From assembly GCA_903877885.1 (NCBI GenBank), contig CAIRFN010000005.1, positions 17,956 through 81,955 of the forward strand: a stretch of DNA of 64,000 nucleotides. The letters are read 5' to 3'. Position numbers and translations under genes: made by a program. The stretch comes from an uncultured Candidatus Berkelbacteria bacterium. GTDB lineage: Bacteria; Patescibacteriota; UBA1384; UBA12157. This document shows, piece by piece, positions 36,939 through 62,447 of the stretch (positions are counted from its first letter, which is position 1; each line of letters begins with the position of its first letter). Under the pieces are notes generated by a model that had not been told where the DNA came from, made no database searches, and was given only the letters and a program-made list of their open reading frames with translations.

Positions 36939-37664
36939 ATGCAACTCGCAGATTTCGTCAAAGACACAAATCCGGAGACCTATGCTGCCTTAACAAATGA
37001 GACAACGCAGGCCGAGGGAGCGACGCAAGTGCCGAGAAGTACACAACGGCCGATGCCAATCGCTGCAAATGTCCTGGACACCAGCAACTTCATCTTTAAC
37101 ACCAAAGTGATGACCCTGATGTTCCCGTTACCGCAGTCAGCGGCAACAATCACTGTCCCGATTCGTGATCGCGGTCAAAAGGCCGGCTTCAAACTGAAGC
37201 CGATTCACGACTTAAAATTCACAATCGTCGGGTACCCGACCGGTCGGATCCTTAGCACTATTGCCAAGAAAATGTCCGACCATCAGTTTGATTCCTTTGT
37301 CTGGCAAATCGAACAGCTCATTCGCCAAACAAACTGGAATTGGCAAGTCGCCGCCGATAAGGCTGGCAATGCCCAGTATTGGGAACTTTCCCGCGCTTAC
37401 CTGGAAGAGGTCAACTCACCGGATGGTAAAGGCAAGTATACCAGAGAAAACCGCCGCGGTTCAATCATCGCCTTGATCGATCTGCCGGGGTTGGAAGGTT
37501 TCTACTGCGAGCTGGAAAAGCTCGTCAGTAAGGCCGCTAACAAATCGACCACCCTGCCACGACCTGCCACCTACATCACCCTGATGGTGAAAGGTGCTAA
37601 TCAGGACGGCATTGGCATAAGCTCTCCCGACGAATTGGAAACGTACAAAGTCAAACGATGGTAA
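36939..37664 (+). CDS. Hypothetical protein (241 aa), GC-elevated
   Basis: AAGGAG RBS. Strong terminator at 37717-37741. Confidence 0.5.
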   Translation: MQLADFVKDTNPETYAALTNETTQAEGATQVPRSTQRPMPIAANVLDTSNFIFNTKVMTLMFPLPQSAATITVPIRDRGQKAGFKLKPIHDLKFTIVGYPTGRILSTIAKKMSDHQFDSFVWQIEQLIRQTNWNWQVAADKAGNAQYWELSRAYLEEVNSPDGKGKYTRENRRGSIIALIDLPGLEGFYCELEKLVSKAANKSTTLPRPATYITLMVKGANQDGIGISSPDELETYKVKRW

Positions 37665-37716: not shown

Positions 37717-37741
37717 AGCGCTCATGATGAGCGCTTTTTAA
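37717..37741 (+). terminator. Rho-independent terminator
   Basis: agcgctca-tga-tgagcgct followed by ttttt. Confidence 0.75.
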
Positions 37742-37752: not shown

Positions 37753-37788
37753 AAGGACAGTCCTTCAGCGCGTTAAAGGACTGTCCTT
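37753..37788. repeat. REP-like palindromic element, copy 3
   Basis: aaggacagtcctt-cagcgcgtta-aaggactgtcctt tt. It is followed by a ttgataccagatacc motif. Confidence 0.8.
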
Positions 37789-37839: not shown

Positions 37840-38793
37840 ATGACCATACAACAAATTTTTGAACTCGGAATTAAATTAGGCGTTAAAAACGATCCTCGAG
37901 GAAAAGTCGGCGTCAAACGCTGGCTTGATTTGCAAAAAAAGAAATTCGATAAAATCTCGAAAGAAGAAAAAGAATTTTTTGATTTAGAACGTTTAACCAA
38001 CCCTTATGCTGATAGTCGAATTTTATTTGACAATAAAAAACCAATCAAACGAATGGCGGCCGGGATTGATATTAATGTTGGCGAAATTGCCTTGTTAAAC
38101 ACACTTGAACCAAAAGTTGATTTAGTTATGGCTCATCATCCGGAAGGTAAAGCTCTGGCCGCGCTTGATGAAGTGATGCACTTACAAGCCGATCTGATGG
38201 CCAGTTACGGTGTCCCGATCAATGTAGCCGAAGGCGTGATGCGCGAACGAATTGAAAAAGTTTCTCGTCAAATTTCACCAAGTAATCATAAGCAAGCAGT
38301 TGATGCCGCGAAACTGGTTGATTTGCCAATGTTTTGTTTGCATACTCCTTGCGACAATTTAGTTTTCCAATTTTTGCAAAATTTAATGGATACGAAAAAA
38401 CCGGAAACTGTGGCTGAAATTGTGGAAATCCTCCAAAAAGTACCGGAATATCGCCTGGCGACTTTAGATAAAGCCGGTCCGCGAATTTTCGCTGGCAGTC
38501 CAGAAAATCGCTGTGGTAAAATCGTGGCCTTTGATATTACCGGCGGCACATCAGGTTCAAAAGAAGTTTATCCAGAATTAGTTCGAGCCAGCATTGGCAC
38601 GGTTATCGGTATGCATATGAATGAAGAAAACCGCGAAGAAGCGCTCAAAAATCATTTGAATATTGTCATCGCCGGCCATATTTCCTCCGACTCACTTGGT
38701 ATGAATTTATATTTAGATGAACTCGAAAAAGAAGGAATCGAGATAATTCCGATTAGTGGGTTGATCCGCGTAAAAAGAAGTAAGAAAAGTTAA
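37840..38793 (+). CDS. Nif3-family dinuclear metal centre protein (YqfO/YbgI-like)
   Basis: 317 aa. AHHPEG, HTPCDN and IVIAGHISSDSLGMN motifs. Possible TTGATA, 17-bp spacer, TATACT promoter at 37806-37834. Confidence 0.7.
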   Translation: MTIQQIFELGIKLGVKNDPRGKVGVKRWLDLQKKKFDKISKEEKEFFDLERLTNPYADSRILFDNKKPIKRMAAGIDINVGEIALLNTLEPKVDLVMAHHPEGKALAALDEVMHLQADLMASYGVPINVAEGVMRERIEKVSRQISPSNHKQAVDAAKLVDLPMFCLHTPCDNLVFQFLQNLMDTKKPETVAEIVEILQKVPEYRLATLDKAGPRIFAGSPENRCGKIVAFDITGGTSGSKEVYPELVRASIGTVIGMHMNEENREEALKNHLNIVIAGHISSDSLGMNLYLDELEKEGIEIIPISGLIRVKRSKKS

Positions 38794-38810
38794 AATTTAT
38801 AACTGTAGAC

Positions 38811-38904
38811 TGTCATTCCAGACCGGACGGCGTCAGGATCTGGAATCTAGGATAATTGTTTCTGGATTCCCGATGTCGGATTGCCATCCGACTCGGGAAT
38901 GACA
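38811..38904. repeat. Family-A MITE-like element, intergenic reference copy
   Basis: tgtcattccagaccggacggcgtcaggatctggaatctag gataattgttt ctggattcccgatgtcggattgccatccgactcgggaatgaca. The whole element is a long imperfect palindrome. Confidence 0.85.
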
Positions 38905-38921
38905 AAGAAAAATATAACAAA

Positions 38922-40070
38922 TTATTTATTAACTTCTTTCTTCAGTTCTTCCACTTTATCCGTTCTCTCCCAAGGTAAATCTAATTCTGGTCTACCGAAA
39001 TGGCCATAGGCGGCAATTTTTTGGTAGATTGGTTTTCGAAGATCTAAGGCTTGGATAATCATCCCTGGTCGTAAATCAAAAACTTTACTCACCGCTTGAG
39101 CGATTTTATCGTCTTCAATGGTGCCAGTACCAAACGTATCAATTCGCACCGACATTGGTTCAGCTCGACCGATGGCATAAGCAATCTGCACTTCACAGCG
39201 TTCGGCTAATTTTGCGGCAACGATATTCTTGGCCACCCATCTGGCCGCATAGCTACCCGACCGATCAACTTTACTCGGATCTTTTCCAGAGAAACAACCG
39301 CCACCGTGACGCGCATAGCCACCATAAGTATCAACAATAATTTTGCGGCCGGTCAGTCCAGTATCACCTTGCGGCCCACCAATCACAAACCGACCGGTGG
39401 TGTTGACATAGTAGTTTGTATTTTGAAGCAAGGATTTAGGGATAACTTTTTCAATTACTTTCTCGATAATTTCTTTTTTTAAGATCGATGTTTTAATATT
39501 TTCATCATGTTGTGCCGCAATTAAAACCGATTCGATGCGGACTGGTTTGTCGCCATCATATTCAACTGTAACCTGGCTTTTGCCGTCTGGTCGCAAGCCT
39601 TTGACAATCCCCTTTTTTCGAACTTCAGCCAAGCGTTGGCAAAGTTTGTGAGCCAAAACAATTGGCAAAGGCATTAATTCTTTGGTTTCGCGACAAGCAT
39701 AACCAAACATCAAACCTTGATCACCGGCGCCTAGATTTTCCAAGTCTTCGACCAAAGGACAGTCCTTTTGTTCCTTTAAGGACTGTCCTTTACTAAACGC
39801 ATCAACACCCTGTGCAATATCGGCTGATTGTTCCTTAACCGCCACCATTACACCGGAAGTTTCCCAGTGAAAACCATATTCGGCATTTGTATAGCCAATT
39901 TGTTTAATGACGTTGCGAGCGATTTTCGGAATATCGACATATGTTTTAGTGGTAATTTCTCCAGCGATAATACAAACGCCGTTGGTCAGCAATGTTTCGC
40001 AAGCGACTCGTCCTTGCGGATCGTCAGTTAAAATTGCATCGAGTACCGCATCACTAATCTGATCAGCCAT
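38922..40070 (-). CDS. metK: S-adenosylmethionine synthetase
   Basis: [35 protein letters not shown] and the rest of the canonical MetK sequence. Carries an in-frame REP-like insertion at 39765-39800 (..[17 protein letters not shown]..). Confidence 0.95.
39765..39800. repeat. REP-like palindromic element inserted in frame inside metK
   Basis: aaggacagtcctt-ttgttccttt-aaggactgtcctt. It adds about 12-16 residues relative to the conserved MetK loop before GAGDQG. Confidence 0.8.
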
Positions 40071-40183
40071 TTTGTCAAGGATGCCCTTCAGTAACAGATT
40101 CTGATGTAAAGAATTTATTCATAGGACTATCTCCTTTCTAGAGCATAAAGCTTCCTCATATTTTTTATATTTATCTAATTTTT

Positions 40184-40277
40184 TGTCATTCCAGACCGGA
40201 TGGCATCAGGATCTGGAATCCAGAGTTAATTATTTCTGGATTCTTGATGTCGGAGTACCCTCCGGCTCGAGAATGAC
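40184..40277. repeat. Family-A MITE-like element in the metK 5' leader, between the riboswitch terminator and the start codon
   Basis: tgtcattccagaccggatggcatcaggatctggaatccag...ctggattcttgatgtcggagtaccctccggctcgagaatgaca. Confidence 0.8.
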
Positions 40278-40292
40278 ATAAAAAAACAAAAA

Positions 40293-40412
40293 TCACCGCA
40301 AGCGGTGAAATATATAAAAACATCTTTCCCGCAAGGGGTCGGAGGTAGCACCTAAATTAATGGGTTGCTGGTGGATCATCGGGCCGAATCCCTCACCACA
40401 CTCTTGATATTA
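40293..40412 (-). ncRNA. SAM-I (S-box) riboswitch with an intrinsic terminator, upstream of metK
   Basis: Minus-strand read: AUCAAGAGUGUGGUGAGGGAUUCGGCCCGAUGAUCCACCAGCAACC...GGUGCUACCUCCGAC. This matches the conserved SAM-I core AGAGnGGnGGAGGGAnnGGCCCGAUGAnnCCnnGCAACC...GGUGCUA. It is followed by a terminator tcaccgcttgcggtga plus a T-run at 40280-40308. Confidence 0.8.
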
Positions 40413-40528
40413 AAATTAATTTTTAACTAAATTTATCATATTATAACCATCTAACTTTTGTCAAACTCTTGCCTGGAAACAATTTTTGCTTTAAGATGTA
40501 AATATTAAATTTATATTTTAGGAGCAAA

Positions 40529-40957
40529 ATGAGCCACCACAAAAGTCAAACAATTTTAGTTCGTTGTCCCGATGATCGCTACAGTCCCGGTGAAATGCTA
40601 CACGCCGGACTGAAAGAAATTTTAAATTGCGAAGATTGTTTGGTTCGCTATGAGCCGAACGGTTTTGGCGGCGCCATGGAATTTTGCCACCCGGAAACTC
40701 AAACTGCTTGGCTCTGGCGCTTTAAAATCGCCGGCACACTTGAACCAAAAATCCAAAGATTAATCGTCATTAATCACACGCCTGGTTGTGGTGCGGTTTG
40801 CGCTGAATTTGGCCCGTTTGCTTCTGACGACGATGAAAAAAATAAACACCTCGAACTCTTGAGCCAAGCCGCGGAATTTATTGGAAAACACGCGCCCGAA
40901 ATTCAGTTCATTGGCTACCTTCAAACCCCCGAAGGCGTCAAAAAAATTATCGGTTAA
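40529..40957 (+). CDS. Hypothetical Cys-containing protein (142 aa)
   Basis: Intact ORF. RBS taggagcaaaATG. No family recognised. Confidence 0.4.
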   Translation: MSHHKSQTILVRCPDDRYSPGEMLHAGLKEILNCEDCLVRYEPNGFGGAMEFCHPETQTAWLWRFKIAGTLEPKIQRLIVINHTPGCGAVCAEFGPFASDDDEKNKHLELLSQAAEFIGKHAPEIQFIGYLQTPEGVKKIIG

Positions 40958-41047
40958 ATTTTAAACTCTTGATTTTTAGTTTTGTTTAATATATCCTGAA
41001 AATTACCTAAGCGAAAGTTTGGGTAATTTTTTTAGGGAGGGCGCACC

Positions 41048-41560
41048 ATGCCAGACAATGTAAAGCGAATGTTAGAAATTAAGTGCAACGAAGCGCGTTA
41101 TCGTGAGCTAAATCATCCGCTTCGGCGCGGGCTTAAAGCGATCCGTGCATTCCAACATCGTTATGAGGGCCACAAGATCTTTAGTGATGGAGAATGGGGC
41201 GGGCTTCATTACCTGGTCTATGGATCAGAAAAACATTGGCGCGATTCATTTGATTTTGCGATTAATGTAGCCCGTATTACCAGTATCGTCGGCATCCTTC
41301 ATTTGGATTGTGCTTGGGCCAAATGGAAAATGGAGCAATTAAATATTGGATATAGTCTTGAAACAGAAATGGAATTTTGCTTAAGAACAGCTCGAGCATC
41401 AACACTACTCCTTAACTACTATGCTTCAGGAATTCCTTTTGAGATCTTTCTTCATCATGAAGAAGAGCCTTACGAGGCATATCTATTTAACCCAATCAGA
41501 ACAATTTTTGAACCATTCACTATTCCGTTGGTTGAAAAAAACCAAATCATATCCTCATAA
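41048..41560 (+). CDS. Hypothetical protein (170 aa)
   Basis: RBS agggagggcgcaccATG. Terminator follows. Confidence 0.4.
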   Translation: MPDNVKRMLEIKCNEARYRELNHPLRRGLKAIRAFQHRYEGHKIFSDGEWGGLHYLVYGSEKHWRDSFDFAINVARITSIVGILHLDCAWAKWKMEQLNIGYSLETEMEFCLRTARASTLLLNYYASGIPFEIFLHHEEEPYEAYLFNPIRTIFEPFTIPLVEKNQIISS

Positions 41561-41564
41561 CTTT

Positions 41565-41588
41565 ACCCCGCTTCGGCGGGTTTTTTTA
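41565..41588 (+). terminator. Rho-independent terminator
   Basis: cccgc-ttcg-gcggg followed by ttttttt. Confidence 0.7.
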
Positions 41589-41669
41589 ATCTAATTTTAT
41601 CAAATTGAACCGTGCGTAAATTTCTAACGGGGTTGATTTTTCTTGACTCGTGTGTTAGCCTAGAAAAGT

Positions 41670-42413
41670 ATGAATATTTCTTTAGCTGCCGAAAAAATAA
41701 TTGAATTTGGACCCGTTGCTATTACCAACACCATGCTGGTCACTTGGGTAGCAGTGGTGCTTTTAATAACATTATCGTATTTTGCCACCAAGCATATGAC
41801 CAAAGTTCCAGGTAAATTACAAAACTTTTTTGAGTTTGTAGTCGAAGCCTTATTAAATTTGATTGATAATATTACTCAAGATCGCAAACAAAGCTTGAGA
41901 TTTTTACCACTTGTGGCCACCATTTTTCTGTTTATTATCACCTGCAATTGGATGGGTTTAATTCCCGGTTTTGAAACGATTGGCCGTTGGACAGTCGAAA
42001 ATGGCCATCAAGTCTTGGTACCATTTTTACGTTCACCGGCATCGGACTTAAATACCACCATTGCTCTAGCGCTTATTGCCATGGTTTCGGTTCAAATTAT
42101 CGGTATCAGTAGCGTTGGCTTTTTCCGTTACATTAAAAAATTTGTTAACTTCAAAGGCCCGATTGAATTTTTTGTCGGCGTCGTTGAAAGCATTTCCGAA
42201 TTTGCTAAAGTCATTTCCTTTAGTTTTCGTTTATTTGGCAATGTTTTCGCCGGCGGCGTTTTATTAGCAGTCGTTTCCAGCCTATTACCACTTATCGTTC
42301 CGATTCCTTTTTATGGCATGGAACTGTTTGTCGGTTTCATTCAAGCTTTGGTTTTTGCCATGTTAACCACTGTATTTTTACAGATGGCAACTGTTGCTCA
42401 CGACGAACACTAA
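41670..42413 (+). CDS. atpB: F0F1 ATP synthase subunit a
   Basis: 247 aa and polytopic. Conserved C-terminal region ..FRLFGNVFAGGVLL.. with the essential Arg. Confidence 0.9.
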   Translation: MNISLAAEKIIEFGPVAITNTMLVTWVAVVLLITLSYFATKHMTKVPGKLQNFFEFVVEALLNLIDNITQDRKQSLRFLPLVATIFLFIITCNWMGLIPGFETIGRWTVENGHQVLVPFLRSPASDLNTTIALALIAMVSVQIIGISSVGFFRYIKKFVNFKGPIEFFVGVVESISEFAKVISFSFRLFGNVFAGGVLLAVVSSLLPLIVPIPFYGMELFVGFIQALVFAMLTTVFLQMATVAHDEH

Positions 42414-42425
42414 ATTTTAAATTAA

Positions 42426-42677
<252 letters not shown>

Positions 42678-42739
42678 ACCCAGACACGCAGCAAGAAAAA
42701 ACTTGCTGTTGCTTGAGTTTAATAATATCGGAGGTTATT

Positions 42740-43222
42740 TTGGAAGCACTTGGTATTGATGGAAAACTTTTACTTGGTCAGATAGTCAATTTTTTGATTC
42801 TTTTTGGCGCGCTCGGATATTTCTTATATAAACCAGTGGTAAAAATGTTGACTGATCGCCAAAACACCATTGCCGATTCTTTGGAAAACGCCAAAAAAAT
42901 TGAAGAAAACTTGGCTAAATCAGAAGCCAAAACTAAAGCAGCTTTGGAATTAGCTCAAAGCGAAGCCCGAAAAGTGCTGGAAGAAGCAATTAAATTAGCT
43001 TCTGATCAGAAAAACAAAATCCTAGCCGAAGCCCAAACCCAATCAGATCGAATTATTGCCAGCGCCAAAGCCGAAGCCAAACAAGCCAAAGATGATGTTG
43101 TGGCTGACGCCAAAAAAGAATTGTCTTCTGTGGTTTTGGCCGCGTTGGATAAAATTATTGGTCATGATATTGATGAAACCACCAAAGAAAAATTAACCAA
43201 GAATGCAATTGAAGAAATCTAA
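42740..43222 (+). CDS. atpF: F0F1 ATP synthase subunit b
   Basis: N-terminal TM followed by a long charged helix. TTG start at 42740 after GGAGG. The track opens at an upstream TTG at 42713. Confidence 0.8.
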   Translation: MEALGIDGKLLLGQIVNFLILFGALGYFLYKPVVKMLTDRQNTIADSLENAKKIEENLAKSEAKTKAALELAQSEARKVLEEAIKLASDQKNKILAEAQTQSDRIIASAKAEAKQAKDDVVADAKKELSSVVLAALDKIIGHDIDETTKEKLTKNAIEEI

Positions 43223-43605
43223 TGAAAATTTCTCCTAATAATTTTGCGAACGCTTTAATCGATTCTGCAGAGCCCGATAATCTTAAAATTATTGCTCGTA
43301 ATTTTTGGTACAAATTGCAAAAAAATAAACAATACAAAGATTTTGCAAAAGTTTTGGACGCGATTGATCTTGAATCAGCAAAAATTCAAAACAAAATTTT
43401 AGCGAAAATTTATTCAAAAAATGAATTAACCGATCAAGATAAGCAAACCATTAATGAAAAATTAGAAAAAAAGTTTCAAAAAGCAATTGTTTTGAAAAAT
43501 ATTATTGGCAAGAATATCACGGGTATAATTATCAAGATTGATGATAAAATAATTGATCTTTCCCTTGAGGGAAAACTCGATAAAATTAAACGGCTTTTTA
43601 ATTAA
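43222..43605 (+). CDS. atpH: F0F1 ATP synthase subunit delta (short form)
   Basis: Position in the operon between b and alpha. 127 aa with an OSCP-like C-terminus (..IIGKNITGIIIKIDDKIIDLSLEGKL..). Start overlaps the atpF stop. Confidence 0.65.
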   Translation: MKISPNNFANALIDSAEPDNLKIIARNFWYKLQKNKQYKDFAKVLDAIDLESAKIQNKILAKIYSKNELTDQDKQTINEKLEKKFQKAIVLKNIIGKNITGIIIKIDDKIIDLSLEGKLDKIKRLFN

Positions 43606-43614
43606 GGAAGTAAA

Positions 43615-45129
43615 ATGAGTAATTACAACATTGTTGAAGAACTAAAAAAAGAGATTATGGATTTTGACACTAACGCCAAAGAAGAATCTGCTGGCGAAGT
43701 AGCCGAAATCGGTGACGGTATTGCTAAAATTTACGGCCTTCGTGATGCCAAAAACGGCGAACTTCTAACCATTCATACTTCCACCTCCGAGGTGGCCGCA
43801 ATGGTTTTAAACCTTGAAGAAACCACTATCGGCGCCATTATTTTGGGCGATTACAAAAAAATTCAAGCTGGTGATAAAGTCAGTACCACCGGAAATGTGG
43901 CTGAAATTCCTGTTTCCGAGGAAATTATCGGTCGTGTCGTTGATCCACTCGGCGTTCCACTTGATGGCAAGGCTGATATCAAAGCTGTTAAATCAATGCC
44001 AATCGAAAAAGTCGCGCCTGGCGTTATTACTCGACTGGGCGTTTCTGTGCCGCTTCAAACCGGTATTAAAGCAATTGATGCTCTGATTCCGATTGGTCGC
44101 GGTCAACGCGAACTCATTATTGGCGATCGCGGCACAGGGAAAACCGCCATCGCCATTGATACTATTATTAACCAAAAAAATCTGCCAAAAGAAAACAGAC
44201 CGATTTGTATTTATGTGGCTATTGGTCAAAAGAAATCCAAAGTTGCCCGCATCGCCGCGATTTTGGAAGAACACGGCGCCATGGAATACACCACCATTGT
44301 TTTGGCCGGCGCTTCAGATCCAGCGCCGCTATCTTACATTGCCCCATATTCTGGTTGCGCTATTGGCGAATATTTTATGGAACAAGGCAAAGATGTTTTG
44401 ATTGTTTTTGATGATTTAACCAAGCACGCTTGGGCTTATCGCCAAGTTTCTTTGTTACTTCGCCGCCCACCAGGTCGCGAAGCTTATCCAGGCGATGTTT
44501 TCTATCTCCACTCTCGATTATTGGAACGCTCTGCTCGTTTAAACAAAGATTTTGGCGGCGGCTCAATGACAGCTTTACCAATCATCGAAACCCAAGCGGG
44601 CGATGTTTCCGCTTATATTCCAACCAATGTTATTTCCATTACCGACGGCCAGATTTTCTTGGAATCCGATCTTTTTTACCAAGGTATTCGACCAGCTTTA
44701 AACATCGGTATATCGGTATCACGTGTCGGCGGCGCCGCTCAAATTAAAGCGATGAAAAAAGTCGCGGGAAAATTAAAATTGGAAATGGCTCAATATCGTG
44801 AACTGGCAGCTTTCGCTCAATTTGCATCAGATTTGGATGCCGATACCAAAAAAACCATTGAGCGTGGCAAACGCATGACCGAGGTGATGAAACAGCCACA
44901 ATATCAACCAATGCCAGTCGAAGAACAAGTGGTGATTTTGTACGCGGTTTCCAACGGTTATTTGGATGGTTATGATGTTACTGAAATTCAAGATATTGCC
45001 AAGGAATTGACCATCAAAGCCCAAAGCGAGGGCAAAGCCATTTTAGCCGAAATCCGCGAAAAATCAGTTATTGACGAAGCCTTAGAAGCCAAACTAAAAT
45101 CGTTTTTAGAAAAAAATACGAAAAAATAA
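43615..45129 (+). CDS. atpA: F0F1 ATP synthase subunit alpha
   Basis: GDRGTGKT Walker A plus the complete conserved alpha-subunit sequence. Confidence 0.95.
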
Positions 45130-45136
45130 TTTTAAA

Positions 45137-45527
45137 TGTCATCCTCGAGCCGGTTTGAGCTTTGTCGAAAACCGACATCAAGGATCCATCAAAATAAAAA
45201 GCTATTTCGTTTACATTTTAGCCAGTCAGAAAAACGGAACATTATATATCGGTGTTACAAATGATATTATAAGAAGGATTTGGGAGCACAAAAATAAAGC
45301 TATTCAAGGTTTTACAGATAAATATAGAATTGATAAATTAGTTTATTTCGAAGAAACACCAGATATTAATTCAGCTATTAAGAGAGAAAAACAATTAAAA
45401 TTATGGAGCCGTTCCTGGAAAATAGATTTGATAGAAAAGAATAATCCTGATTGGAAAGATTTATATCAAGATTTGTTATAATGGATCCTTGATGTTGGAG
45501 CGCTTCGCTTCCAACTCGAGGATGACA
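45137..45527 (+). mobile_element. Second full-length family-A element carrying a GIY-YIG ORF between its terminal modules, inserted between atpA and atpG
   Basis: Left module tgtcatcctcgagccggtttgagctttgtcgaaaaccgacatcaaggatcca. ORF to 45481. Right module tggatccttgatgttggagcgcttcgcttccaactcgaggatgaca. Confidence 0.75.
45155..45481 (+). CDS. GIY-YIG nuclease family protein (second copy)
   Basis: ..YFVYILASQKNGTLYIGVTNDIIRRIWEHKN..REKQLKLWSRSWK.. The frame is open from a TTG inside the left terminal module. There is no ATG near the conserved N-terminus, so the start is uncertain. Confidence 0.75.
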   Translation: MSFVENRHQGSIKIKSYFVYILASQKNGTLYIGVTNDIIRRIWEHKNKAIQGFTDKYRIDKLVYFEETPDINSAIKREKQLKLWSRSWKIDLIEKNNPDWKDLYQDLL

Positions 45528-45548
45528 AAAAAAGATAAAAACTTTAGT

Positions 45549-45611
45549 ATGTCATTCTCGAGCCGAATGGTAATTCGACCTGCCTGACGGCAGGCAGGCA
45601 TCAAGAATCCA
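45549..45611. repeat. Family-A solo module with an embedded 20-nt palindrome (cctgcctgacggcaggcagg)
   Basis: tgtcattctcgagccgaatggtaattcgacctgcctgacggcaggcaggcatcaagaatccaa. Confidence 0.7.
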
Positions 45612-45617
45612 ACTGTA

Positions 45618-45659
45618 TGTCATTCTCGAGTCGGATGGGATCCGACATCAAGAATCCAG
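45618..45659. repeat. Family-A solo module, tandem direct copy
   Basis: tgtcattctcgagtcggatgggatccgacatcaagaatccag. Confidence 0.7.
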
Positions 45660-45712
45660 ATAAATAAAAAAGGCCAATGCGTAAACGCAAAGGCCGAAAT
45701 CCGGTCTTAAAG

Positions 45713-45958
45713 CTACTTTCGGAAAAACATAGCTATCAGACCAACAATTATGCTACCGATATAAGCGATTGGATGTTGTGCAAAACCGAGAGTCAACATC
45801 CATGAAATCGCTCCACTTGCACCGACGGCGGTAGATAGACCAGAATCTGGACCCATAACAGCCAGAAAGAAAAGGAAGCTTAATATCAGAGTTGCGATCA
45901 TCAGTGATGCGTACATTAACGTAGCAACACCAAAGAATCTTCCTATTCGGTAAGTCAT
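45713..45958 (-). CDS. Small hydrophobic membrane protein (81 aa), antisense to and inside the atp operon
   Basis: Intact ORF with 2-3 TM helices. RBS ggagggaacgaaATG on the minus strand. Weak terminator-like hairpin plus a T-run downstream of its stop. Confidence 0.4.
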   Translation of the reverse strand: MTYRIGRFFGVATLMYASLMIATLILSFLFFLAVMGPDSGLSTAVGASGAISWMLTLGFAQHPIAYIGSIIVGLIAMFFRK

Positions 45959-46025
45959 TTCGTTCCCTCCAACAAAAATCTATCAGAAGTATACCATAAT
46001 AAGCATTAAAAGTCAATAGAATATT

Positions 46026-47066
46026 ATGCCAAGTACACAAGAATTTCGTAGAAGAATTAAATCGGTCAGTTCGACCAAACAGATTACCAAAGCAATGGAA
46101 ATGATTGCTTCTATTAAGATGCAAAAATCTGTCAAAACTATTGCCCAGGCTCGAGCCTATATCCAAAACGCATGGAATATTTTACATTTACTGTCTGAAA
46201 AAATATTAAGCGACGATCACGCGCTGATTAATCCTAAAGATCATGCCAAAAAAACAGCCGTGATTTTAATTACTTCTGACCGCGGTTTATGCGGTTCATA
46301 TAATTCAGAAGTGATCAAGAAGCTAACATCATTCAAAAATGTCATCCTCGAGACGGAGGGTACTCCGACATCAAGGATCCAGGACCTGGATTCCAGATCT
46401 GGTTCCCAACCAGTCTGGAATGACAATACGATTGATATCATTGCCATCGGTAAAGTCGGCGCCGCGTTTGTTAACAGATATAAAATCGGCAAACTGATCG
46501 CTGAATTTAAAGGTTTTGAAAATAATATTTCCGTTGAAGATGTCATTCCGATTTCCAAACTGACGAATGGTGAATATATGGCTGGAAATTATGACAAAGT
46601 GGTAGTGATTTATTCTCATTTCATTTCTTCGCTTAAACAAGTCCCGGTCGTCAAACAAATTTTGCCAATTGTCGAAGATCATATCGATCATCCGGAATTA
46701 TGGGAAGGAAATAATGTCATCCTCGAGCCGGAGGGTACTCCGACATCAAGGATCCAGGACCTGGATTCCCGATCCGGAGGCCATCCGGTCGAGAATGACA
46801 AAAACAATACTGAATACAAATTTGAACCCAATCCTGATGAAGTTTTTGATGGCGTCTTGCGACAAATTTTACGCACCCAAATTTTCGGTGCCATTTTAGA
46901 AGCCAACGCTTCTGAACATTCGGCCCGTATGGTGGCCATGAAAAATGCCACCGACAATGCCACCGATTTAGTTGATGAATTAAAATTAGTATATAACAGC
47001 ATCCGCCAAGGAAACATCACTTCGGAAATCGCCGAAATTAGTGGTGCCGCCGAGGCGATGAAATAA
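46026..47066 (+). CDS. atpG: F0F1 ATP synthase subunit gamma (lengthened by two in-frame MITE insertions)
   Basis: Conserved N-terminus (..RRRIKSVSSTKQITKAMEMIASIKMQK..) and C-terminus (..NSIRQGNITSEIAEISGAAEAM). At 346 aa it is longer than typical. Confidence 0.9.
   Translation: MPSTQEFRRRIKSVSSTKQITKAMEMIASIKMQKSVKTIAQARAYIQNAWNILHLLSEKILSDDHALINPKDHAKKTAVILITSDRGLCGSYNSEVIKKLTSFKNVILETEGTPTSRIQDLDSRSGSQPVWNDNTIDIIAIGKVGAAFVNRYKIGKLIAEFKGFENNISVEDVIPISKLTNGEYMAGNYDKVVVIYSHFISSLKQVPVVKQILPIVEDHIDHPELWEGNNVILEPEGTPTSRIQDLDSRSGGHPVENDKNNTEYKFEPNPDEVFDGVLRQILRTQIFGAILEANASEHSARMVAMKNATDNATDLVDELKLVYNSIRQGNITSEIAEISGAAEAMK
46340..46425. repeat. Family-A MITE-like element in frame in atpG (copy 1)
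   Basis: tgtcatcctcgagacggagggtactccgacatcaaggatccag gac ctggattccagatctggttcccaaccagtctggaatgaca. Translated as ..VILETEGTPTSRIQDLDSRSGSQPVWND.. Confidence 0.8.
46715..46800. repeat. Family-A MITE-like element in frame in atpG (copy 2)
   Basis: tgtcatcctcgagccggagggtactccgacatcaaggatccag gac ctggattcccgatccggaggccatccggtcgagaatgaca. Translated as ..VILEPEGTPTSRIQDLDSRSGGHPVEND.. Confidence 0.8.
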
Positions 47067-47077
47067 CAGGAGTATAA

Positions 47078-48500
<1,423 letters not shown>

Positions 48501-48501
48501 G

Positions 48502-48711
48502 ATGCTAAACTTCATAAACAGCTATTGGATTTTAATAATTCCAGTAATTACCTTAATTATTGGTTTGCTATTTCTATCTATTGGCACCAAGAATAACAAT
48601 AAAAATTTAATTATATTTTCAAAAATTATTAGTATTTTTAGTTTTGTTATAATCTGTTATTTAGTATTTGTGACTTTTATGATTTACTTAAGTATGAAAC
48701 CTTTGAATTAA
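48502..48711 (+). CDS. Small hydrophobic protein (69 aa) between atpD and atpC
   Basis: Two predicted TM helices and very AT-rich. Possibly a real small membrane protein or a spurious ORF. Confidence 0.3.
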   Translation: MLNFINSYWILIIPVITLIIGLLFLSIGTKNNNKNLIIFSKIISIFSFVIICYLVFVTFMIYLSMKPLN

Positions 48712-48712
48712 A

Positions 48713-49123
48713 ATGAAAACATTTAATCTAAAATTAATTTCTCCAACTGGTATTAAATACGAAGCCTCGGCAACGGCGGCTTTTTTGCCGACTGCCGAAG
48801 GTACGATTGAAATTTTGCCAGATCACATGCCGCTGATTGCGCTTTTGTCACCCGGAGAAATTATTATTAAAAATAATGCTGAAACTAAAAGTCTTGTCAC
48901 CGATGGCGGCTTAGTGGAGATTGCCGATAACGTGGTTAAGATTTTGGCTGATGAAGCTGAAGAAGCGCATAACCTAGATGAGATGAAAATTTTGGAAGCC
49001 AAAAAAGCGGCTGAAAATCGTTTGGCTAATGCCAAAGACGATGTTGAACATGCCGACGCCGCCGCGCATTTAGAAAAACAATTATCAAAGTTGACGTTCC
49101 TTAAACGTCGTAGACATAAATAA
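48713..49123 (+). CDS. atpC: F0F1 ATP synthase subunit epsilon
   Basis: N-terminal beta-sandwich (..LKLISPTG..ASATAAFLPTAEGTIEILPDHMPLIALL..) plus a C-terminal helical hairpin. Confidence 0.85.
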   Translation: MKTFNLKLISPTGIKYEASATAAFLPTAEGTIEILPDHMPLIALLSPGEIIIKNNAETKSLVTDGGLVEIADNVVKILADEAEEAHNLDEMKILEAKKAAENRLANAKDDVEHADAAAHLEKQLSKLTFLKRRRHK

Positions 49124-57696: not shown

Positions 57697-60600
57697 ATGG
57701 CCGACGATAATATTAAATTTACCACTAAAACCAACCAAACCTTTGATGTTGAGGTTGAAAAAACCAAAAGTTCGACCGAAAAAACTGAATTAGGTACTAC
57801 TACTTCGACTGCTGGATCAGAAAATAATAGTGGAAAAGCTTCACCAAGTCAAACTGGATCGACTGAACAATCCTCTAAACCCGGTTCTACCCAATCCCAA
57901 CCACAAAATAATAATCAACCAGAAAATCAGCAAAATCAACAAGATCAGCAAAACCAAAAAAACAAAGAAGAAAAAGAAAAAGCTGATCAAAAAGATAAGG
58001 ATAAAGAAAAAGAAAAAGCCGAAAAAGAAGGCCAAGAACCAAAAGAAAAACCAGCCGAAGGTGAGAAACCTGGCGAACCAGGTCAACCAGCCGAAGGTAC
58101 TCCGGGCGAAGGTATCGGCAATGAACCAGCTGGTGTACCTGAAGGCGGATTACCAGAAGGAGCTGGCCCAGTTGGAACAGAAGCGGGGACAACCGGTTTA
58201 GGTGGTGAAGCGGCAGTCGGTGGCGAAGGCGCAGCCGCGGCTGGTGCTGAAGGAGCAGCCGTAGCCGAAGGTGCCGCTGTCGCCGAGGGAGCAGCAGTTA
58301 CTGAAGGCGTGGCTGTAGCCGAGGGAGCCGCGGTGGCTGCTGGCGCTACTGCCGGTGCGCCGGTTTTATTAATCGTTTTAGGAGTTTTAGTAGTTATTGT
58401 ATTGATTCTTTTGGTAATTTTTGGCGTCATGGCTTGCCAAGCCGATCAAGGCGAATTTGGCAAAGGAACCAAACAAGAAGCCGGACCAAATTATACCAAT
58501 ACCAAAACAGTCTTAGCTAGCGCCGGAACACCAGCTAAAAGCGCTCAAGGCAACACTGTTAGCGGTCAAAATAAAATTAATCTTAATGCCACTGATCAAA
58601 AATATATTGCTGCCGGTAGCACCGACAAACGGTTGATGGATGCCTTGCACTATGTTGACCAAAAACATCTAAGTCTTGGTGTTAGTCACGTTATTTCTGG
58701 CTATAACGGCTCGGCGAAAGTTAGTTACAATTCTAATACCTTGGCTTCCGAAATTGATGCCAAATATAGTCTATTTCATCCGGTAGGCATTAGCTATGCC
58801 GCGCTAGATTATTCAAACATTCCTGATTTAACCGAATCTGGCGCCTTGGACAATTCTCAAGTGACAGCCAATGTTTCGGCCCACCAAGAAGGTTTGGCAA
58901 TTGATATTTCTACGATTGATTTTGTCTATCACGACCACGAATATGATCCGCTCTGCCCAGATGGTTTTCCACCGTTTGACAAGGTTTGGTATAGCGACGG
59001 TAGTTCGGATTCTAGTGGTATTTTGGGTAGCTTAATTAATCCCGAGGGTTTAAAAGCTAATTTAGATAGTTTGACTTCGCAAATCACGAATTTAACTGCA
59101 TCTTTAAACGATTCAACTATTACCAAAATTTTAAATCAAGCTAATCCCGATCAAGCCAGCAATCTATTGAAAATCGTTCAAAATGCCAGTAAAAATAGTA
59201 ATGGCGATTTGGCTAGTATTAATAATATTTTCCAACAAAACAACGACTCTGTTAATGCTCTGCAAGCCCAAGTTGCTAAATACGCTGGCGCCATTAACGC
59301 CAGTTCTCAAGACCAAGCGACAAAAGATAAAGAAACTAACGCTCTAATTAAAATTCAAGCAATGGTTGAGTCTAATACTAGCCAATGGAGCCAAATCGGC
59401 AATGTGACTGGCATCCATACTGGTAGCATCCAACGAGATATTGATGATCTTAGTGATTTAGCTAATGGTCAATTCGACCCAAATCGCACTAATGATTTGA
59501 TTAACCACTTAACGAGCGATTTTAACAGTATTACCAATTTTAAGGGCATCAGTGGCTTAGGCCAAGCCAGCCAGTTGACTCAAAGTTTTGGTGATATTAC
59601 CAAATATCTAACCAACGGTAATAGTTCCGATGTTAATGCTATGGCCGATACTTTTAATAAATTTATTTCTGATCCTGGTATCAGTTCTGGTGGTCTTGGT
59701 TCAAGTTCTAAAAATTTCAACACAGTATTAAATGATTTGAGTAAAAATCCGAGTTTAAAAAGTTTAGCTAATTTGGATATTGCAAAGTTGGGAAACCTTG
59801 GTGATTTTGGTAAATTAACTAATCTGGCCAATTTGGATAATTTATCCAATCTCACTAAAATCGGCGGTTTAGGTAGTTTAAGTAGTTTGCCTGGTTTAAG
59901 CAATTTAAGTAATATTCCAGGTGTTAGTGGATTAATTAGTGGTCTAAGTGGGCTTTTGGGCGGCAATGAATTATTACGCATTCCCTGCTCCAGCTACAGC
60001 CCAGTACCAGATTCGAGTAACCAGTTGCCATCGATTCCCGGGTTAAGTCAAGCTCTTGGAACAGTTACTAATAGTTTAAACCAATTGAATAATGTGATGA
60101 ATACTTCAGTTATAGACGCCTTAAATAAAATTGATCCAACATTAACAAAACAACTTCAAAACTCGATTTCTCAAATAACTGGCATTGCCCCAGGTCAACA
60201 AGCGACCGATATCAATGCTATCACCAGCCAAAAACTGGCTTCTAACCTCTCGACTGTTAAAGATTTATTTAATAAAAATTCCGATACGGTTAATTTATTA
60301 CAAAAACAAGTCAGCCAAATTGCGTCGGCAATTAATCATTCCTCTCAAGATCAGAATACTAAAAATCAAGAAACTCAGGCTTTAGTTAAACTTCAAGCCA
60401 TGGTTGAAACTAATTCTAACCAATGGAATCAATTTATGTCTGATTCTGTTAACCAAAGAGGAATGATCGATCAAGACCTTAGTTTCATCAATTATGTCAC
60501 CGGCCAAAACTCGAATAAAGTCGATGCCAATACGGTTAAAGGTGTACTTGATCGAGCAATCAACGATATTCAAGCGACAAATTTTAATCAAAACAATAGT

Positions 60601-61437
60601 CAGGTTGCTCAAGCCAGAGATTTAAATACTGCCTTTAACGATATTACTAATCAGTTAAAAACAATTTTACCAACAAACGGTTCGACTAGTTTTAGCGCAA
60701 GCCAAGCCAATCAAATTGCTGATACATTTCAGAATTTCTTAAAATCAGATTCTAATCCAGCCACCGGCACTAAAAACTTCTCTAGCATCATGAATACTTT
60801 AAGTAAAAATCCTGATTTGAAAGCTTTAGCCAACTTGGATGTCAGTAAACTTGGTGATCTGGGAGATTTTGGCAATCTTAGTAAATTGGCAAATGTTGGC
60901 AATTTAAGCAGTCTCACAAATATTGGCGGCTTAGGCAGCCTTGGTAGTTTAACTGGTTTTTCTAAAATTGCTTCTAGCCTGGGTAATATTCCCGGATTAG
61001 GCAGTCTCTTTGGCGGTCTGACCGGCGGTACCAATACGACCTGGAACGGTTTGCCAGCCGTCGCTATTCCGATTCAAGTGGGTTGGCAAGATCGAAAACC
61101 ATCAGTCGGCTGGATCACTGGCGATTCCAGTAATTTGATTACCAATGCTATTACTAATGCTTTGGTTAATTATTTCGTTTATCAACCGGAAGCGCGTCGC
61201 AAAACCCATCAACTGGTTGGTGAATTATTACAATTTCCATATGATATGGTAGCAGCAAGTGGTAAATCTAGCGATAAATATAATTATCGCTTAAGCCAGA
61301 TTATTACTTACTCTGATGAACGCGATGTCAAACCATTTTGGGATAAATTAACCGATCTCTATGGTTTACCTCGCACATCAAATCTTGGTCTTTTTGCCAT
61401 GCCAGAAGCTTGGGATCATGTTCACATCGGATACTAA
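57697..61437 (+). CDS. Giant surface protein (1246 aa) with three regions: an acidic/low-complexity N-terminus with a Gly/Ala/Val/Glu repeat, a single TM, and two ~350-aa tandem repeat units
   Basis: RBS taggaggggaacATG. TM helix PVLLIVLGVLVVIVLILLVIFGVMA. Repeat units around aa 490-800 and 820-1110, e.g. ..NTVLNDLSKNPSLKSLANLDIAKLGNLGDFGKL.. vs ..SIMNTLSKNPDLKALANLDVSKLGDLGDFGNL.. Confidence 0.6.
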   Translation: MADDNIKFTTKTNQTFDVEVEKTKSSTEKTELGTTTSTAGSENNSGKASPSQTGSTEQSSKPGSTQSQPQNNNQPENQQNQQDQQNQKNKEEKEKADQKDKDKEKEKAEKEGQEPKEKPAEGEKPGEPGQPAEGTPGEGIGNEPAGVPEGGLPEGAGPVGTEAGTTGLGGEAAVGGEGAAAAGAEGAAVAEGAAVAEGAAVTEGVAVAEGAAVAAGATAGAPVLLIVLGVLVVIVLILLVIFGVMACQADQGEFGKGTKQEAGPNYTNTKTVLASAGTPAKSAQGNTVSGQNKINLNATDQKYIAAGSTDKRLMDALHYVDQKHLSLGVSHVISGYNGSAKVSYNSNTLASEIDAKYSLFHPVGISYAALDYSNIPDLTESGALDNSQVTANVSAHQEGLAIDISTIDFVYHDHEYDPLCPDGFPPFDKVWYSDGSSDSSGILGSLINPEGLKANLDSLTSQITNLTASLNDSTITKILNQANPDQASNLLKIVQNASKNSNGDLASINNIFQQNNDSVNALQAQVAKYAGAINASSQDQATKDKETNALIKIQAMVESNTSQWSQIGNVTGIHTGSIQRDIDDLSDLANGQFDPNRTNDLINHLTSDFNSITNFKGISGLGQASQLTQSFGDITKYLTNGNSSDVNAMADTFNKFISDPGISSGGLGSSSKNFNTVLNDLSKNPSLKSLANLDIAKLGNLGDFGKLTNLANLDNLSNLTKIGGLGSLSSLPGLSNLSNIPGVSGLISGLSGLLGGNELLRIPCSSYSPVPDSSNQLPSIPGLSQALGTVTNSLNQLNNVMNTSVIDALNKIDPTLTKQLQNSISQITGIAPGQQATDINAITSQKLASNLSTVKDLFNKNSDTVNLLQKQVSQIASAINHSSQDQNTKNQETQALVKLQAMVETNSNQWNQFMSDSVNQRGMIDQDLSFINYVTGQNSNKVDANTVKGVLDRAINDIQATNFNQNNSQVAQARDLNTAFNDITNQLKTILPTNGSTSFSASQANQIADTFQNFLKSDSNPATGTKNFSSIMNTLSKNPDLKALANLDVSKLGDLGDFGNLSKLANVGNLSSLTNIGGLGSLGSLTGFSKIASSLGNIPGLGSLFGGLTGGTNTTWNGLPAVAIPIQVGWQDRKPSVGWITGDSSNLITNAITNALVNYFVYQPEARRKTHQLVGELLQFPYDMVAASGKSSDKYNYRLSQIITYSDERDVKPFWDKLTDLYGLPRTSNLGLFAMPEAWDHVHIGY

Positions 61438-61460: not shown

Positions 61461-61495
61461 AAGGACTGTCCTTCAACGCGCTAAAGGACAGTCCT
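61461..61495. repeat. REP-like palindromic element, copy 5
   Basis: aaggactgtcctt-caacgcgcta-aaggacagtcctt tttt. Followed by atacttgatactaaatcctaaatactagatac. Confidence 0.8.
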
Positions 61496-61540
61496 TTTTA
61501 AATACTTGATACTAAATCCTAAATACTAGATACTAATTTT

Positions 61541-61813
61541 ATGATGGATAAAATTAGTGGATTTTTAAGCCACAACTCAAAATATCAAAGGCTGTCCGGG
61601 CCGCTTCGCGCCGCTCAAGTTTGTGATACAGCACGCGAACTTGGCCTTAATCGTTTCGGCGTTGCAAGTTTCAAAGACGGGCTTCTAACGCTTACCGTCG
61701 AAAATTCCATGGCCGGGGCCAACTTGCAAATGGAAATACCAGAAATAATCCAATCTGTGAATACTAAAATTGGACAAGAGTTAGTCAAAAAAATTAGATT
61801 TAAAATTCAGTAG
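61541..61813 (+). CDS. DUF721-like small protein (DciA-like fold candidate)
   Basis: 90 aa. ..GLLTLTVENSMAGANLQMEIPEIIQSVNTKIGQELVKKIRFK.. resembles the DUF721 consensus. Low-certainty call. Confidence 0.4.
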   Translation: MMDKISGFLSHNSKYQRLSGPLRAAQVCDTARELGLNRFGVASFKDGLLTLTVENSMAGANLQMEIPEIIQSVNTKIGQELVKKIRFKIQ

Positions 61814-61823: not shown

Positions 61824-61859
61824 AAGGACAGTCCTTCAGCGCGTTAAAGGACTGTCCTT
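61824..61859. repeat. REP-like palindromic element, copy 6
   Basis: aaggacagtcctt-cagcgcgtta-aaggactgtcctt t. Located between convergent genes. Confidence 0.8.
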
Positions 61860-61877: not shown

Positions 61878-62447
61878 TTAAAATATCTGCGGCAAATGCA
61901 TAAAGCTGGCAAAGATGTTCGGCAAAAACGAAACGAAATATAAAAATAACGAAATAAAAACACCGTAGAGCAAAACCCGAATTGACCAATTAAGGTAAAA
62001 CTTGCGCGGCACATTGGAATATTTGGTTAAATTATAGGTCTCTAAAATATAGGCATCATAAATTTTGTTCTCATTAGCCAAGGTATCCAAAACCTGTTTT
62101 TGATATTCGTCTTCGGATTTACCGCTGATTTGATGATGGTAAAACAGACTTTCACTCTGACCTTTTTTGGTCGCAAAATGACTTGGTTTCAAAGCCATTA
62201 AAGCAAAAAACATAGAAATAACTACAGATATTAAAGCAGCAATAAAAAATACGCTTTGAGCCCATTGGGCTTCAAAATTTGTGGCAAAAAAGACAATCAA
62301 AGCCGAGTTAAAACCAATCATAATATTGGTTCTTAAGTCCAACATATTGCGAATTTCAATCTGTTTATTTAAAATATCAGACACAAAAGTCACCCGCTCC
62401 AGAGCGCCCAATTCCCCATCCCATTTAATTTCTTCTTTAGTTTGCAT
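61878..62447 (-). CDS. Membrane protein (3 TM) with a cytoplasmic N-terminal domain. Function unknown
   Basis: Start trimmed to the ATG at 62447 after GGAGGGG. The track uses the GTG at 62462. Preceded by conserved leader copy B. Confidence 0.5.
   Translation of the reverse strand: MQTKEEIKWDGELGALERVTFVSDILNKQIEIRNMLDLRTNIMIGFNSALIVFFATNFEAQWAQSVFFIAALISVVISMFFALMALKPSHFATKKGQSESLFYHHQISGKSEDEYQKQVLDTLANENKIYDAYILETYNLTKYSNVPRKFYLNWSIRVLLYGVFISLFLYFVSFLPNIFASFMHLPQIF

Follow-up and report, generated by a model that had tools for sequence, protein, structure and literature searches.

The 64-kb window analysed here (contig CAIRFN010000005.1, positions 17,956 to 81,955, from an uncultured Candidatus Berkelbacteria bacterium) carries a short inverted repeat that recurs in gaps between genes and lies once inside metK, the gene for S-adenosylmethionine (SAM) synthetase; an initial annotation had likened it to repetitive extragenic palindromic (REP) elements. 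Arm search of the window revealed the doublet AAGGACAGTCCTT-N10-AAGGACTGTCCTT at 11373, 15692, 37753, 39755 (the metK copy) and 61824, a variant with a flipped central pair (T..A) at 61461, and a solo arm at 62629, which together account for 13 exact arms (six doublets and one solo arm). The search thus recovered the annotated motif at 11373, 15692, 37753 and 61824, within metK and, as a single arm, at 62629; at 61461 it found a doublet as annotated, but with an inverted central pair. For the metK copy the coordinates are 39755–39790 and not, 10 nt away, 39765–39800, and the six other genes said to end in a terminator-like hairpin come down to five intergenic doublets and the solo arm.

Anatomy and folding of the repeat

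The repeat unit is a 13-nt near-palindrome, AAGGAC(A/T)GTCCTT, with A or T at its centre, and the arms of a doublet are mutually reverse-complementary. The whole unit spans 36 nt, with 10 nt between the arms and a constant centre-to-centre distance of 23 bp in the window. Because an A..T doublet is its own reverse complement except for the loop, the T..A copy at 61461 represents a true flip of the central pair and not an inverted copy. At up to two mismatches, 26 arm matches were observed against 1.1 expected, and 0 of 100 shuffles attained 26. No degenerate copies were found in the window: allowing a third mismatch added just eight scattered 3-mismatch matches, approximately the chance level, and every copy in the window is therefore perfect. 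Neither a target-site duplication nor a conserved target motif was seen around the window copies. A GTAG/CGTC tag at the palindrome end was likewise not found, as flanks were not conserved within the window or between genomes, and GTAG adjoined the arm only sporadically (e.g., in L036).

Seven copies, the six in the window and one at L031:3328, had not been pre-selected by the search pattern, and in each of them the central bases of the two arms are complementary (A..T or T..A, with no A..A or T..T). RNA folding gave hairpins of 13–19 bp with energies of −20 to −30 kcal/mol (z −4.5 to −7.4), and the doublets folded as DNA at −13 to −14 kcal/mol. Furthermore, unrelated flank sequence lengthened the stem by at least 4 bp in 9 of 39 distinct copies, compared with approximately 0.15 copies expected by chance. 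The complementary centres, the flank-extended stems and the folds together argue that the element is a hairpin formed by a single strand and not a pair of independent binding sites in duplex DNA.

RAYT genes and copies in other genomes

In a Paceibacterota contig (L031), the open frame over one copy is a gene for a REP-associated tyrosine transposase (RAYT; PF01797 Y1_Tnp, 57 bits) that starts just past the doublet. It is flanked by doublets at 3999 (upstream) and 3328 (downstream), an arrangement kept in close relatives (L033, L034 and L035). RAYT homologues were picked at falling identity to this protein on independent contigs: P0132 (68% identity, L036), P0134 (62%, L037), P0143 (60%, L038), P0154 (55%, L040) and P0183 (47%, L042/43). 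All five carried exact AAGGAC(A/T)GTCCTT 13-mers on both sides of the gene, which with L031 makes six RAYT lineages spanning 47–100% identity; the probability of finding one specific 13-mer in such flanks by chance is ~1e-5. The term REP-like in the initial annotation is well founded in this respect. Paired arms beside RAYT genes were separated by spacers of 2, 10, 21 or 63 nt. A more distant RAYT, P0224 (41%, L044/45), was flanked by a different long palindrome. The HUH motif NH[IV]HL and the catalytic-tyrosine motif Y(I/V)HxNP (YxHxNP) were kept in 8 of 8 aligned RAYT proteins, and several homologues carry the JGI annotation 'REP element-mobilizing transposase RayT'.

Four of these contigs also contain a single exact arm within the 3' part of the RAYT open reading frame (ORF), at 2220–2232 in L036, 3509–3521 in L037, 3494–3506 in L038 and 3548–3560 in L040. 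It encodes ..YG(L/F)KGQSFEEF.. at a conserved position and has decayed to KGETF in L031. The arm could date from an old in-frame insertion or serve in autoregulation.

An exact-pattern doublet scan of one genome per species (185,579 species) detected 29 loci in approximately 18 genomes, nearly all of them Patescibacteria of many classes. The hosts comprised Saccharibacteria, Paceibacterota, Gottesmanbacteria, Falkowbacteria, Uhrbacteria, Minisyncoccia and unclassified Patescibacteria, with one Bacillus enclensis genome and one bin labelled Pseudomonadales as outliers. The exact doublet was absent from IMG/VR, and a phage-borne element was rejected on that ground. A CRISPR repeat, which can likewise measure 36 nt and be partly palindromic, was rejected since copies are solitary and form no array. 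A sequencing adaptor or assembly artefact was also rejected, as loops and flanks vary, many projects contribute copies, host ORFs stay open and independent assemblies are identical. A pair of DNA-uptake sequences of the Neisseria type was set aside because the RAYT linkage accounts for the family.

Loops were alike within a genome and different between genomes, whereas arms were invariant across genomes; the loop families were ACnGnATCAA (JBAXYM, JAQVBZ), GGGYATCTTT (JBBTTN) and CAGCGCGTTA (the window). Degenerate copies were present in those other doublet-bearing genomes. Intragenic copies in differing frames and orientations keep the loop family of their own genome, which indicates that the whole doublet is the copied unit. 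Two doublets, at 1212–1260 in L017 and 5984–6030 in L024 (Bacillus enclensis, outside the candidate phyla radiation, CPR), have a 10-nt loop that is nearly repeated in the 10 nt after the second arm (GGAAGCATCC/ggaagcatcg and AATTATTTTA/cattatttta), and these look like a 23-nt tandem duplication.

Ten of 30 exact copies from other genomes lay inside long ORFs that stay open. Pfam confirmed nine of the ten host ORFs as real genes, the tenth having no Pfam match: TsaD, peptidase U32, Glu/Leu dehydrogenase (GDH), ribulose-phosphate 3-epimerase (Rpe), a GatA-type amidase, an IleRS-type class I tRNA synthetase, DNA polymerase I (PolA; in its exonuclease-polymerase linker), a glycosyltransferase and DnaE. 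Between them the copies use all three reading frames, with the products KGQSL-xxx-KDCP, PRTVL-xxx-QGLSL and KDSP-xxxx-RTVL. Since the arm is free of stop codons in all six frames and the unit measures 36 nt, the bare unit can be inserted anywhere without breaking the reading frame.

Some of these host genes had additional features. The TsaD gene of L010 (~560–735) contains, besides the exact doublet, an upstream pair aaggactgccctt-N13-AAGGACAGTCCTT with a 13-nt spacer and one degenerate arm, as well as a GQGLKGRPWS-like segment, which suggests that one gene was struck by the repeat repeatedly. The IleRS-type ORF of L016 has a histidine-phosphatase domain (residues 456–616) inside the tRNA synthetase, and the DnaE of L032 also carries an intein with a LAGLIDADG domain (residues 769–1189).

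We consider it probable, with good confidence, that the element is a non-autonomous hairpin repeat of the REP type or its inverted-doublet form (REPIN), belonging to a Patescibacteria-wide RAYT clade and including the metK copy as an in-frame case. As single-stranded DNA or RNA, the two inverted 13-nt near-palindromes would fold into a hairpin of 13–15 bp. The cognate enzyme would be a RAYT (Y1/HUH, IS200-like) of a clade widespread in Patescibacteria and, by analogy with characterised RAYT and IS200/IS605 enzymes, may bind the single-stranded hairpin, cut and rejoin beside it, and spread copies in trans. Copies would survive where they are least harmful, that is 3' of genes and above all in convergent gaps, while stop-free arms and a length that is a multiple of three would let others survive in flexible surface loops of proteins. 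In metK, the copy would have entered the hypervariable stretch that links the active-site gating loop to GAGDQG and taken the place of most of the 13 amino acids there, and the resulting segment is presumably translated. Should the intergenic copies terminate transcription or stabilise mRNA at all, this would follow secondarily from the hairpin. To judge from the sequences, it is the arms and not the loop that are invariant between genomes, as might be expected of the part recognised by a RAYT.

Several observations weigh against this interpretation. No RAYT was found in the window by tblastn or by a hidden Markov model built from 120 RAYTs (the longest contig of the genome is 445 kb), so that we can only infer the enzyme for this genome. 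A filled and an empty site could be paired at nucleotide resolution for no copy; the comparison with the closest relative, L001, failed because synteny (L001 ~12243) ends exactly at the 37753 copy. The metK loop TTGTTCCTTT matches the family loop CAGCGCGTTA at only 4 of 10 positions despite perfect arms, a pattern not expected if an old copy had simply decayed neutrally. MetK gained 4 amino acids net rather than 12, so that the insertion must have gone along with a deletion. The GTAG/CGTC tag typical of catalogued REPs is missing from the element. Finally, the arm is constant at 13 of 13 positions while RAYT identity falls to 47%, which is unusual for REP families; here RAYT and hairpin may have been partners for an unusually long time, with a 13-nt arm that is invariant across the CPR radiation.

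We also considered whether the 13-bp palindromes are double-stranded binding sites for a dimeric regulator or nucleoid protein, neither forming hairpins nor moving. Each arm taken singly is a near-perfect palindrome, arms stay the same where loops and flanks vary, and the constant 23-bp centre spacing in the window corresponds to approximately two helical turns. However, binding sites of this kind would not account for inter-arm central bases that are always complementary or for unrelated flanks that lengthen stems in 9/39 copies, and the varied spacers near RAYT genes show no fixed helical phasing. Copies also lie inside ORFs of many unrelated genes and are linked specifically to a single-strand DNA transposase family, which makes such sites a very improbable explanation.

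The hallmark of REP/REPIN-RAYT systems is one repeat that both flanks the RAYT gene and is dispersed genome-wide (PMC3116915, PMC3337134, PMC5581495). We compared the element with the REP/bacterial interspersed mosaic elements (BIME) of E. coli with TnpA-REP and with the REPINs of Pseudomonas fluorescens (Bertels & Rainey 2011, PMC3116915). It resembles them in its short dispersed palindromes, which usually form inverted doublets that fold into a hairpin and, in the window, mostly lie 3' of genes, in a single RAYT gene flanked by the same repeat, and in the correspondence of distinct RAYT lineages to distinct repeat classes. It differs in its unit of just 13 nt, a perfect palindrome save for the centre, and in the missing tag, since a conserved unpaired GTAG or CGTC at the palindrome end marks catalogued REPs (Di Nocera 2013, PMC3733652). 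Its arm is invariant over many Patescibacteria classes, whereas REP classes are usually genus- or species-specific; the intragenic share is much larger, and the host is a CPR bacterium. Placement 3' of genes and in convergent gaps, like that of the present intergenic doublets, has been reported for REPs (PMC3733652).

In-frame intragenic REPs are known as well, including the Rickettsia palindromic elements (RPEs) and GTAG/CGTC REPs in Opitutus terrae and others, and their hosts include PolA, DnaE and tRNA synthetases (PMC3733652). The element shares with these the in-frame palindromes in housekeeping ORFs and dimers that add approximately 12–30 amino acids, apparently in tolerated loops; metK and ten other ORFs stay open, and the metK site is variable among orthologues. 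RPEs were reportedly described in frame within ORFs by Ogata et al. in 2000. RPE-1 is approximately 100–150 nt long, and length sets the present unit, which is exactly 36 nt and open in six frames, apart from it. With IS200/IS605 elements the family has in common Y1/HUH enzymes that recognise subterminal single-stranded DNA hairpins and the lack of target-site duplications. It differs in that the RAYT locus resembles a single resident gene and not a multi-copy insertion sequence, and in that its hairpins are dispersed without a transposase gene and are therefore non-autonomous, unlike IS200/IS605 ends. We found no paper containing the arm sequence and none linking RAYT or REPINs with Patescibacteria. 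The kind of element is thus known, and the family and its host range are, as far as we found, undescribed.

These results indicate that CPR/Patescibacteria genomes, which are small and gene-dense and are thought to be minimal and poor in mobile DNA, carry a REP-RAYT system with a 36-nt hairpin over many classes, and that the hairpin stands repeatedly in frame within essential enzymes (MetK, IleRS, PolA, DnaE, GatA and TsaD). In the annotation and modelling of CPR proteins, puzzling inserts of 12–13 amino acids of the types KGQSL..KDCP, PRTVL..QGLSL and KDSP..RTVL become recognisable as REP-derived. The constancy of the arm while the enzyme diverges to 47% identity bears on the persistence of RAYT-REP pairs, and the copies are relevant to strain typing and to finding protein loops that tolerate insertions.

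Intergenic copies and transcription termination

Five of the six window doublets are extragenic, and all five lie 3' of a gene, in agreement with the annotated placement at gene 3' ends (three convergent, two tandem, none divergent), a distribution that at n = 5 does not reach significance (p ~0.1). The A..T doublet at 11373–11408, with loop AAACGCGTAA, is located between convergent genes for a signal peptidase S26 (10736–11344, plus strand) and a DUF2207 protein (11469–13118, minus strand). The doublets at 15692–15727, 37753–37788 and 61824–61859, also A..T, share the identical loop CAGCGCGTTA, and a loop conserved in three copies had been noted before. The first lies between convergent genes for a FabH-like KAS III (14555–15637, plus strand) and a 5'-3' exonuclease (15832–16803, minus strand), and the third between those for a DciA-like protein (61541–61813, plus strand) and a PycTM-like protein (61878–62462, minus strand), the latter matching PycTM (Pycsar effector transmembrane domain) with 39 bits. 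The second stands in tandem between a gene at 36939–37664 and a NIF3-like gene at 37840–38793; its flanks extend the stem to 19 bp, and it is base-identical in independent assemblies of the same organism. The flipped T..A doublet at 61461–61496, with loop CAACGCGCTA, is 3' of an ORF (57697–61437, plus strand) encoding a low-complexity, repeat-rich protein of 1246 amino acids. The solo arm AAGGACAGTCCTT at 62629–62641 has no partner arm. The gene order NIF3-metK-ATP synthase (window 37840–49120) is kept in L001.

The initial annotation read the conserved loop as a sign of recent spread or of a functional loop, possibly a protein-binding site; the perfect arms fit recent spread, and a protein-binding site is plausible in another sense, with the invariance residing in the arms and not in the loop.

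Stable hairpins at gene ends could also be selected host intrinsic terminators or 3' mRNA stabilisers that spread by their usefulness, the metK copy then serving as an attenuator. The hairpins are strong, the intergenic doublets are all 3' of genes with three in convergent gaps, and REPs of other bacteria have been reported to act at the RNA level (PMC3733652). Like Rho-independent terminators, the element forms a stable hairpin 3' of genes, and some copies have an A-tract before and a short U-tract after the hairpin and could be bidirectional. It differs from them in its 10-nt loop, its only moderately GC-rich stem and its short U-tracts, and in copies that lie behind canonical terminators or within ORFs. 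The annotated T-runs do exist as short tails, but these comprise only 3–5 T, including the arm's own TT, and U-tracts are weak in most copies. Against a consensus of a GC-rich stem, a loop of 3–8 nt and a U-tract with at least 5 U in 8, only 15692 and 37753 qualified, and only on the minus strand; those at 11373, 61461, 61824 and in metK failed, the 8-nt loop limit penalising their 10-nt loops unless loop bases pair.

On the plus strand, that of the upstream gene, the 15692 and 37753 copies lie 14–30 nt behind canonical GC-rich terminators (15645–15661 and 37717–37735) and are therefore not needed there, and the minus-strand 'terminator' at 37753 has no gene to end. The tail of the metK copy is UUUGGUCG. 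Approximately one third of exact copies elsewhere lie inside essential ORFs, where termination would be lethal, and the RAYT association accounts for the spread without any function. With two of six copies fitting the consensus, two standing behind canonical terminators and about a third of those elsewhere within ORFs, the proposal of a portable terminator is unproven and is not needed to explain the family, and we regard selection for termination as an unlikely origin. Some copies may terminate transcription weakly or in both directions, or stabilise RNA.

The metK copy and the frameshift in its host gene

The best matches of MetK, with up to 87% identity, come from Patescibacteria/CPR metagenomes. 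Its main body is encoded on the minus strand at 38922–40076, and the intragenic doublet occupies 39755–39790 (39754–39791 with an additional A/T pair), with arms at 39755–39767 and 39778–39790 and the plus-strand loop TTGTTCCTTT. On the coding strand it reads AAA GGA CAG TCC TTA AAG GAA CAA AAG GAC TGT CCT TTG and encodes 13 amino acids. Its hairpin folds at −23.9 kcal/mol as RNA (z −4.5) and −14 kcal/mol as DNA, and the copy is the same base for base in three other assemblies (L046–L048).

Alignment of 120 MetK homologues revealed that the stretch from GVD to GAGDQG is hypervariable. It measures 17 amino acids in the window and 13 in most homologues (e.g., SYKEKDSTGEIVS), 0 in P0003 (85% identity), P0069 and P0078, 18 in P0070 and P0120, and approximately 32–35 in P0006 and P0022. 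The arm-encoded peptide and the arm sequence were absent from the 119 other aligned homologues (P0072 being the same gene), and relatives lack the arm at their metK loci. At the DNA level, the codons on either side (GAT GCG TTT ... GTC GAA GAC TTG) can be aligned with relatives while the middle is replaced, and tblastx against the syntenic L001 breaks at 39750/39793. Since relatives have a 13-amino-acid segment here, the doublet displaced approximately 10 resident codons in an existing variable loop, with a net gain of 4 amino acids.

The annotated in-frame insertion is thus supported by the absence of the arm from homologues, but the hypervariable loop was partly replaced and the event was not a pure insertion. 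Similarly, a peptide of 17 amino acids does stand just before GAGDQG, although describing it as an addition overstates the change. The initial annotation held that its claim would fall if the metK segment occurred in homologues without the repeat; in the alignment the loop does occur there and the repeat-encoded peptide does not, so that this objection applies to one half of the claim.

Alignment to solved MetK structures places the segment at a short stretch of variable length that closely follows the SPDIAQGV motif and that we take to be the C-terminal end of the active-site gating loop (residues 98–108, E. coli numbering). In an AlphaFold (AF2) model of MetK the mean predicted local distance difference test score (pLDDT) was 80.5, while residues 101–130 averaged ~50 and residues 116–122 fell below 50. 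The REP-encoded segment is thus predicted to be a flexible surface loop.

The metK loop TTGTTCCTTT agrees better, at 7 of 10 positions, with the TTGATTCTGT family of loops in other genomes. A second subfamily could account for this sequence, as could selection on the KEQ that the loop encodes, or maintenance of the arms. Derivation of the loop from resident metK KEK codons by two separate arm insertions was rejected as a general rule, because the intragenic copies of JBBTTN (L018 and L019) share their genome's loop family in different frames and orientations; for metK alone, two insertions around resident KEK codons may have occurred.

Other MetK proteins also had inserts at this site. The loop of L050 (~1810–1830) contains an extra NSPAG encoded by a perfect 16-nt palindrome, TTCGCCAGCTGGCGAA, and P0006 and P0022 have unrelated segments of approximately 32–35 amino acids. 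In MetK, this site appears to be an insertion hot spot for in-frame palindromes.

The gene is also interrupted near its 5' end. A frame-0 start lies at 40075–40122 (minus strand), with ATG at 40122–40120, the Shine-Dalgarno (SD) sequence AAAGGAG, 15 codons and UGA at 40077–40075. The main body follows in the +1 frame from GAC (D16) at 40076–40074 to the stop, and was listed as an ORF from ATG 40070 (MADQISD...). The candidate +1 shift site is GGG CAU CCU UGA C, after which the +1 frame continues DKMADQISD... as in all MetK proteins. The difference amounts to a single extra T, as the window has GGG CAT CCT T GAC where L001 has GGT CAC CCG GAC and L003 has GGT CAC CCA GAC.

The downstream ORF of 382 amino acids is on record for 10–11 contigs from several samples, and the three readable at the DNA level (L046–L048) carry the identical shift. 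This identity in independent assemblies speaks against a sequencing error, which was rejected also in view of the same codon in L049 and L050. The start M(A/S)DQISD recurred in six other MetK clusters among the top 120, two of them checked as DNA and four more being gene calls that start at M18. In the two checked, L049 (P0100; 1453–1503) reads GAA GGG CAT CCT TGA C AAA ATG and L050 (P0120; 1453–1503) reads GAA GGG CAT CCC TGA C AAA ATG, each with the N-terminal piece of 15–17 codons, the SD and the start codon intact. These lineages are 77–81% identical to the window protein in amino acids and are scattered among in-frame relatives on the MetK tree. The 12 nt before the shift, ACT GAA GGG CAT, are the same in all three shifted lineages while neighbouring codons differ synonymously. 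Shifted lineages have GAAGGG-CAU where in-frame relatives have GAAGGT-CAC or GAGGGT-CAC, SD-likeness being judged by sequence.

It is conceivable that metK is a dead pseudogene, frameshifted at codon 16, and that the in-frame status of the REP is accidental. The extra T after CCT (window 40077) fits this, and its recurrence in three other assemblies means that it is no read error. Nevertheless, all 382 codons that remain are preserved, with 87% identity to the nearest relative and every invariant MetK residue in place, and the 15-codon N-terminal piece retains its SD and start codon. The same shift stands at the same codon in two divergent lineages (L049 and L050), and in-frame copies occur in ten other housekeeping genes of other genomes. 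We consider a dead gene quite unlikely, and the conserved shift site itself argues that the REP-bearing metK is expressed.

Our preferred reading, which we hold at close to even confidence from the sequence pattern, is that the +1 frameshift may be programmed. Somewhat more tentatively, metK here and in at least two other Patescibacteria lineages might be expressed only via a prfB-like +1 shift at GGG CAU CCY UGA C. As alternatives, the shift could be a recurrent or polymorphic inactivating mutation, or ribosomes that terminate could reinitiate at the AUG 4 nt further on and make a MetK with a truncated N terminus; without His14, Asp16 and Lys17 such a protein would probably be inactive. We found no literature report of frameshifting in metK, and a scan of viral contigs for the shift site found nothing.

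The E. coli prfB site is AGG GGG UAU CUU UGA C. In both prfB and metK a slippery codon precedes UGA C near the gene 5' end, a G-rich block, in metK a candidate SD-like stimulator, lies exactly 3 nt upstream (metK, GAA GGG CAU CCU/CCC UGA C), and the site is kept across lineages. The consensus of the prfB +1 site is CTT_TGA_C with an upstream SD-like stimulator (PMC3711429). The metK site differs in its P-site codon, Pro (CCU/CCC) instead of Leu (CUU), in a weaker SD-like block and in its patchy distribution on the MetK tree, and it is a case seen from sequence alone.

Release factor 2 (RF2) terminates at UGA, and its activity needs SAM-dependent methylation by PrmC. Speculatively, low SAM would lower RF2 activity and the shift would then raise MetK synthesis, on top of the upstream SAM riboswitch (on RF2 and PrmC see also reference 37 of PMC12421855). 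If the programmed shift is real, it would be the first recoded SAM synthetase and a new case of bacterial recoding in central metabolism.

The SAM-I riboswitch aptamer (RF00162) lies upstream of metK at 40317–40413 (minus strand; 57.6 bits against a gathering score of 44.4), and its terminator-like hairpin is at 40293–40308 (minus strand). In L049 and L050 no SAM riboswitch matched at the gathering threshold. L001 and L003, whose metK is in frame, likewise have a SAM-I riboswitch ahead of the gene. In both L049 and L050, an ORF of 272 amino acids at 622–1440 with similarity to LAGLIDADG_3 (homing-endonuclease type) immediately precedes the frameshifted metK.

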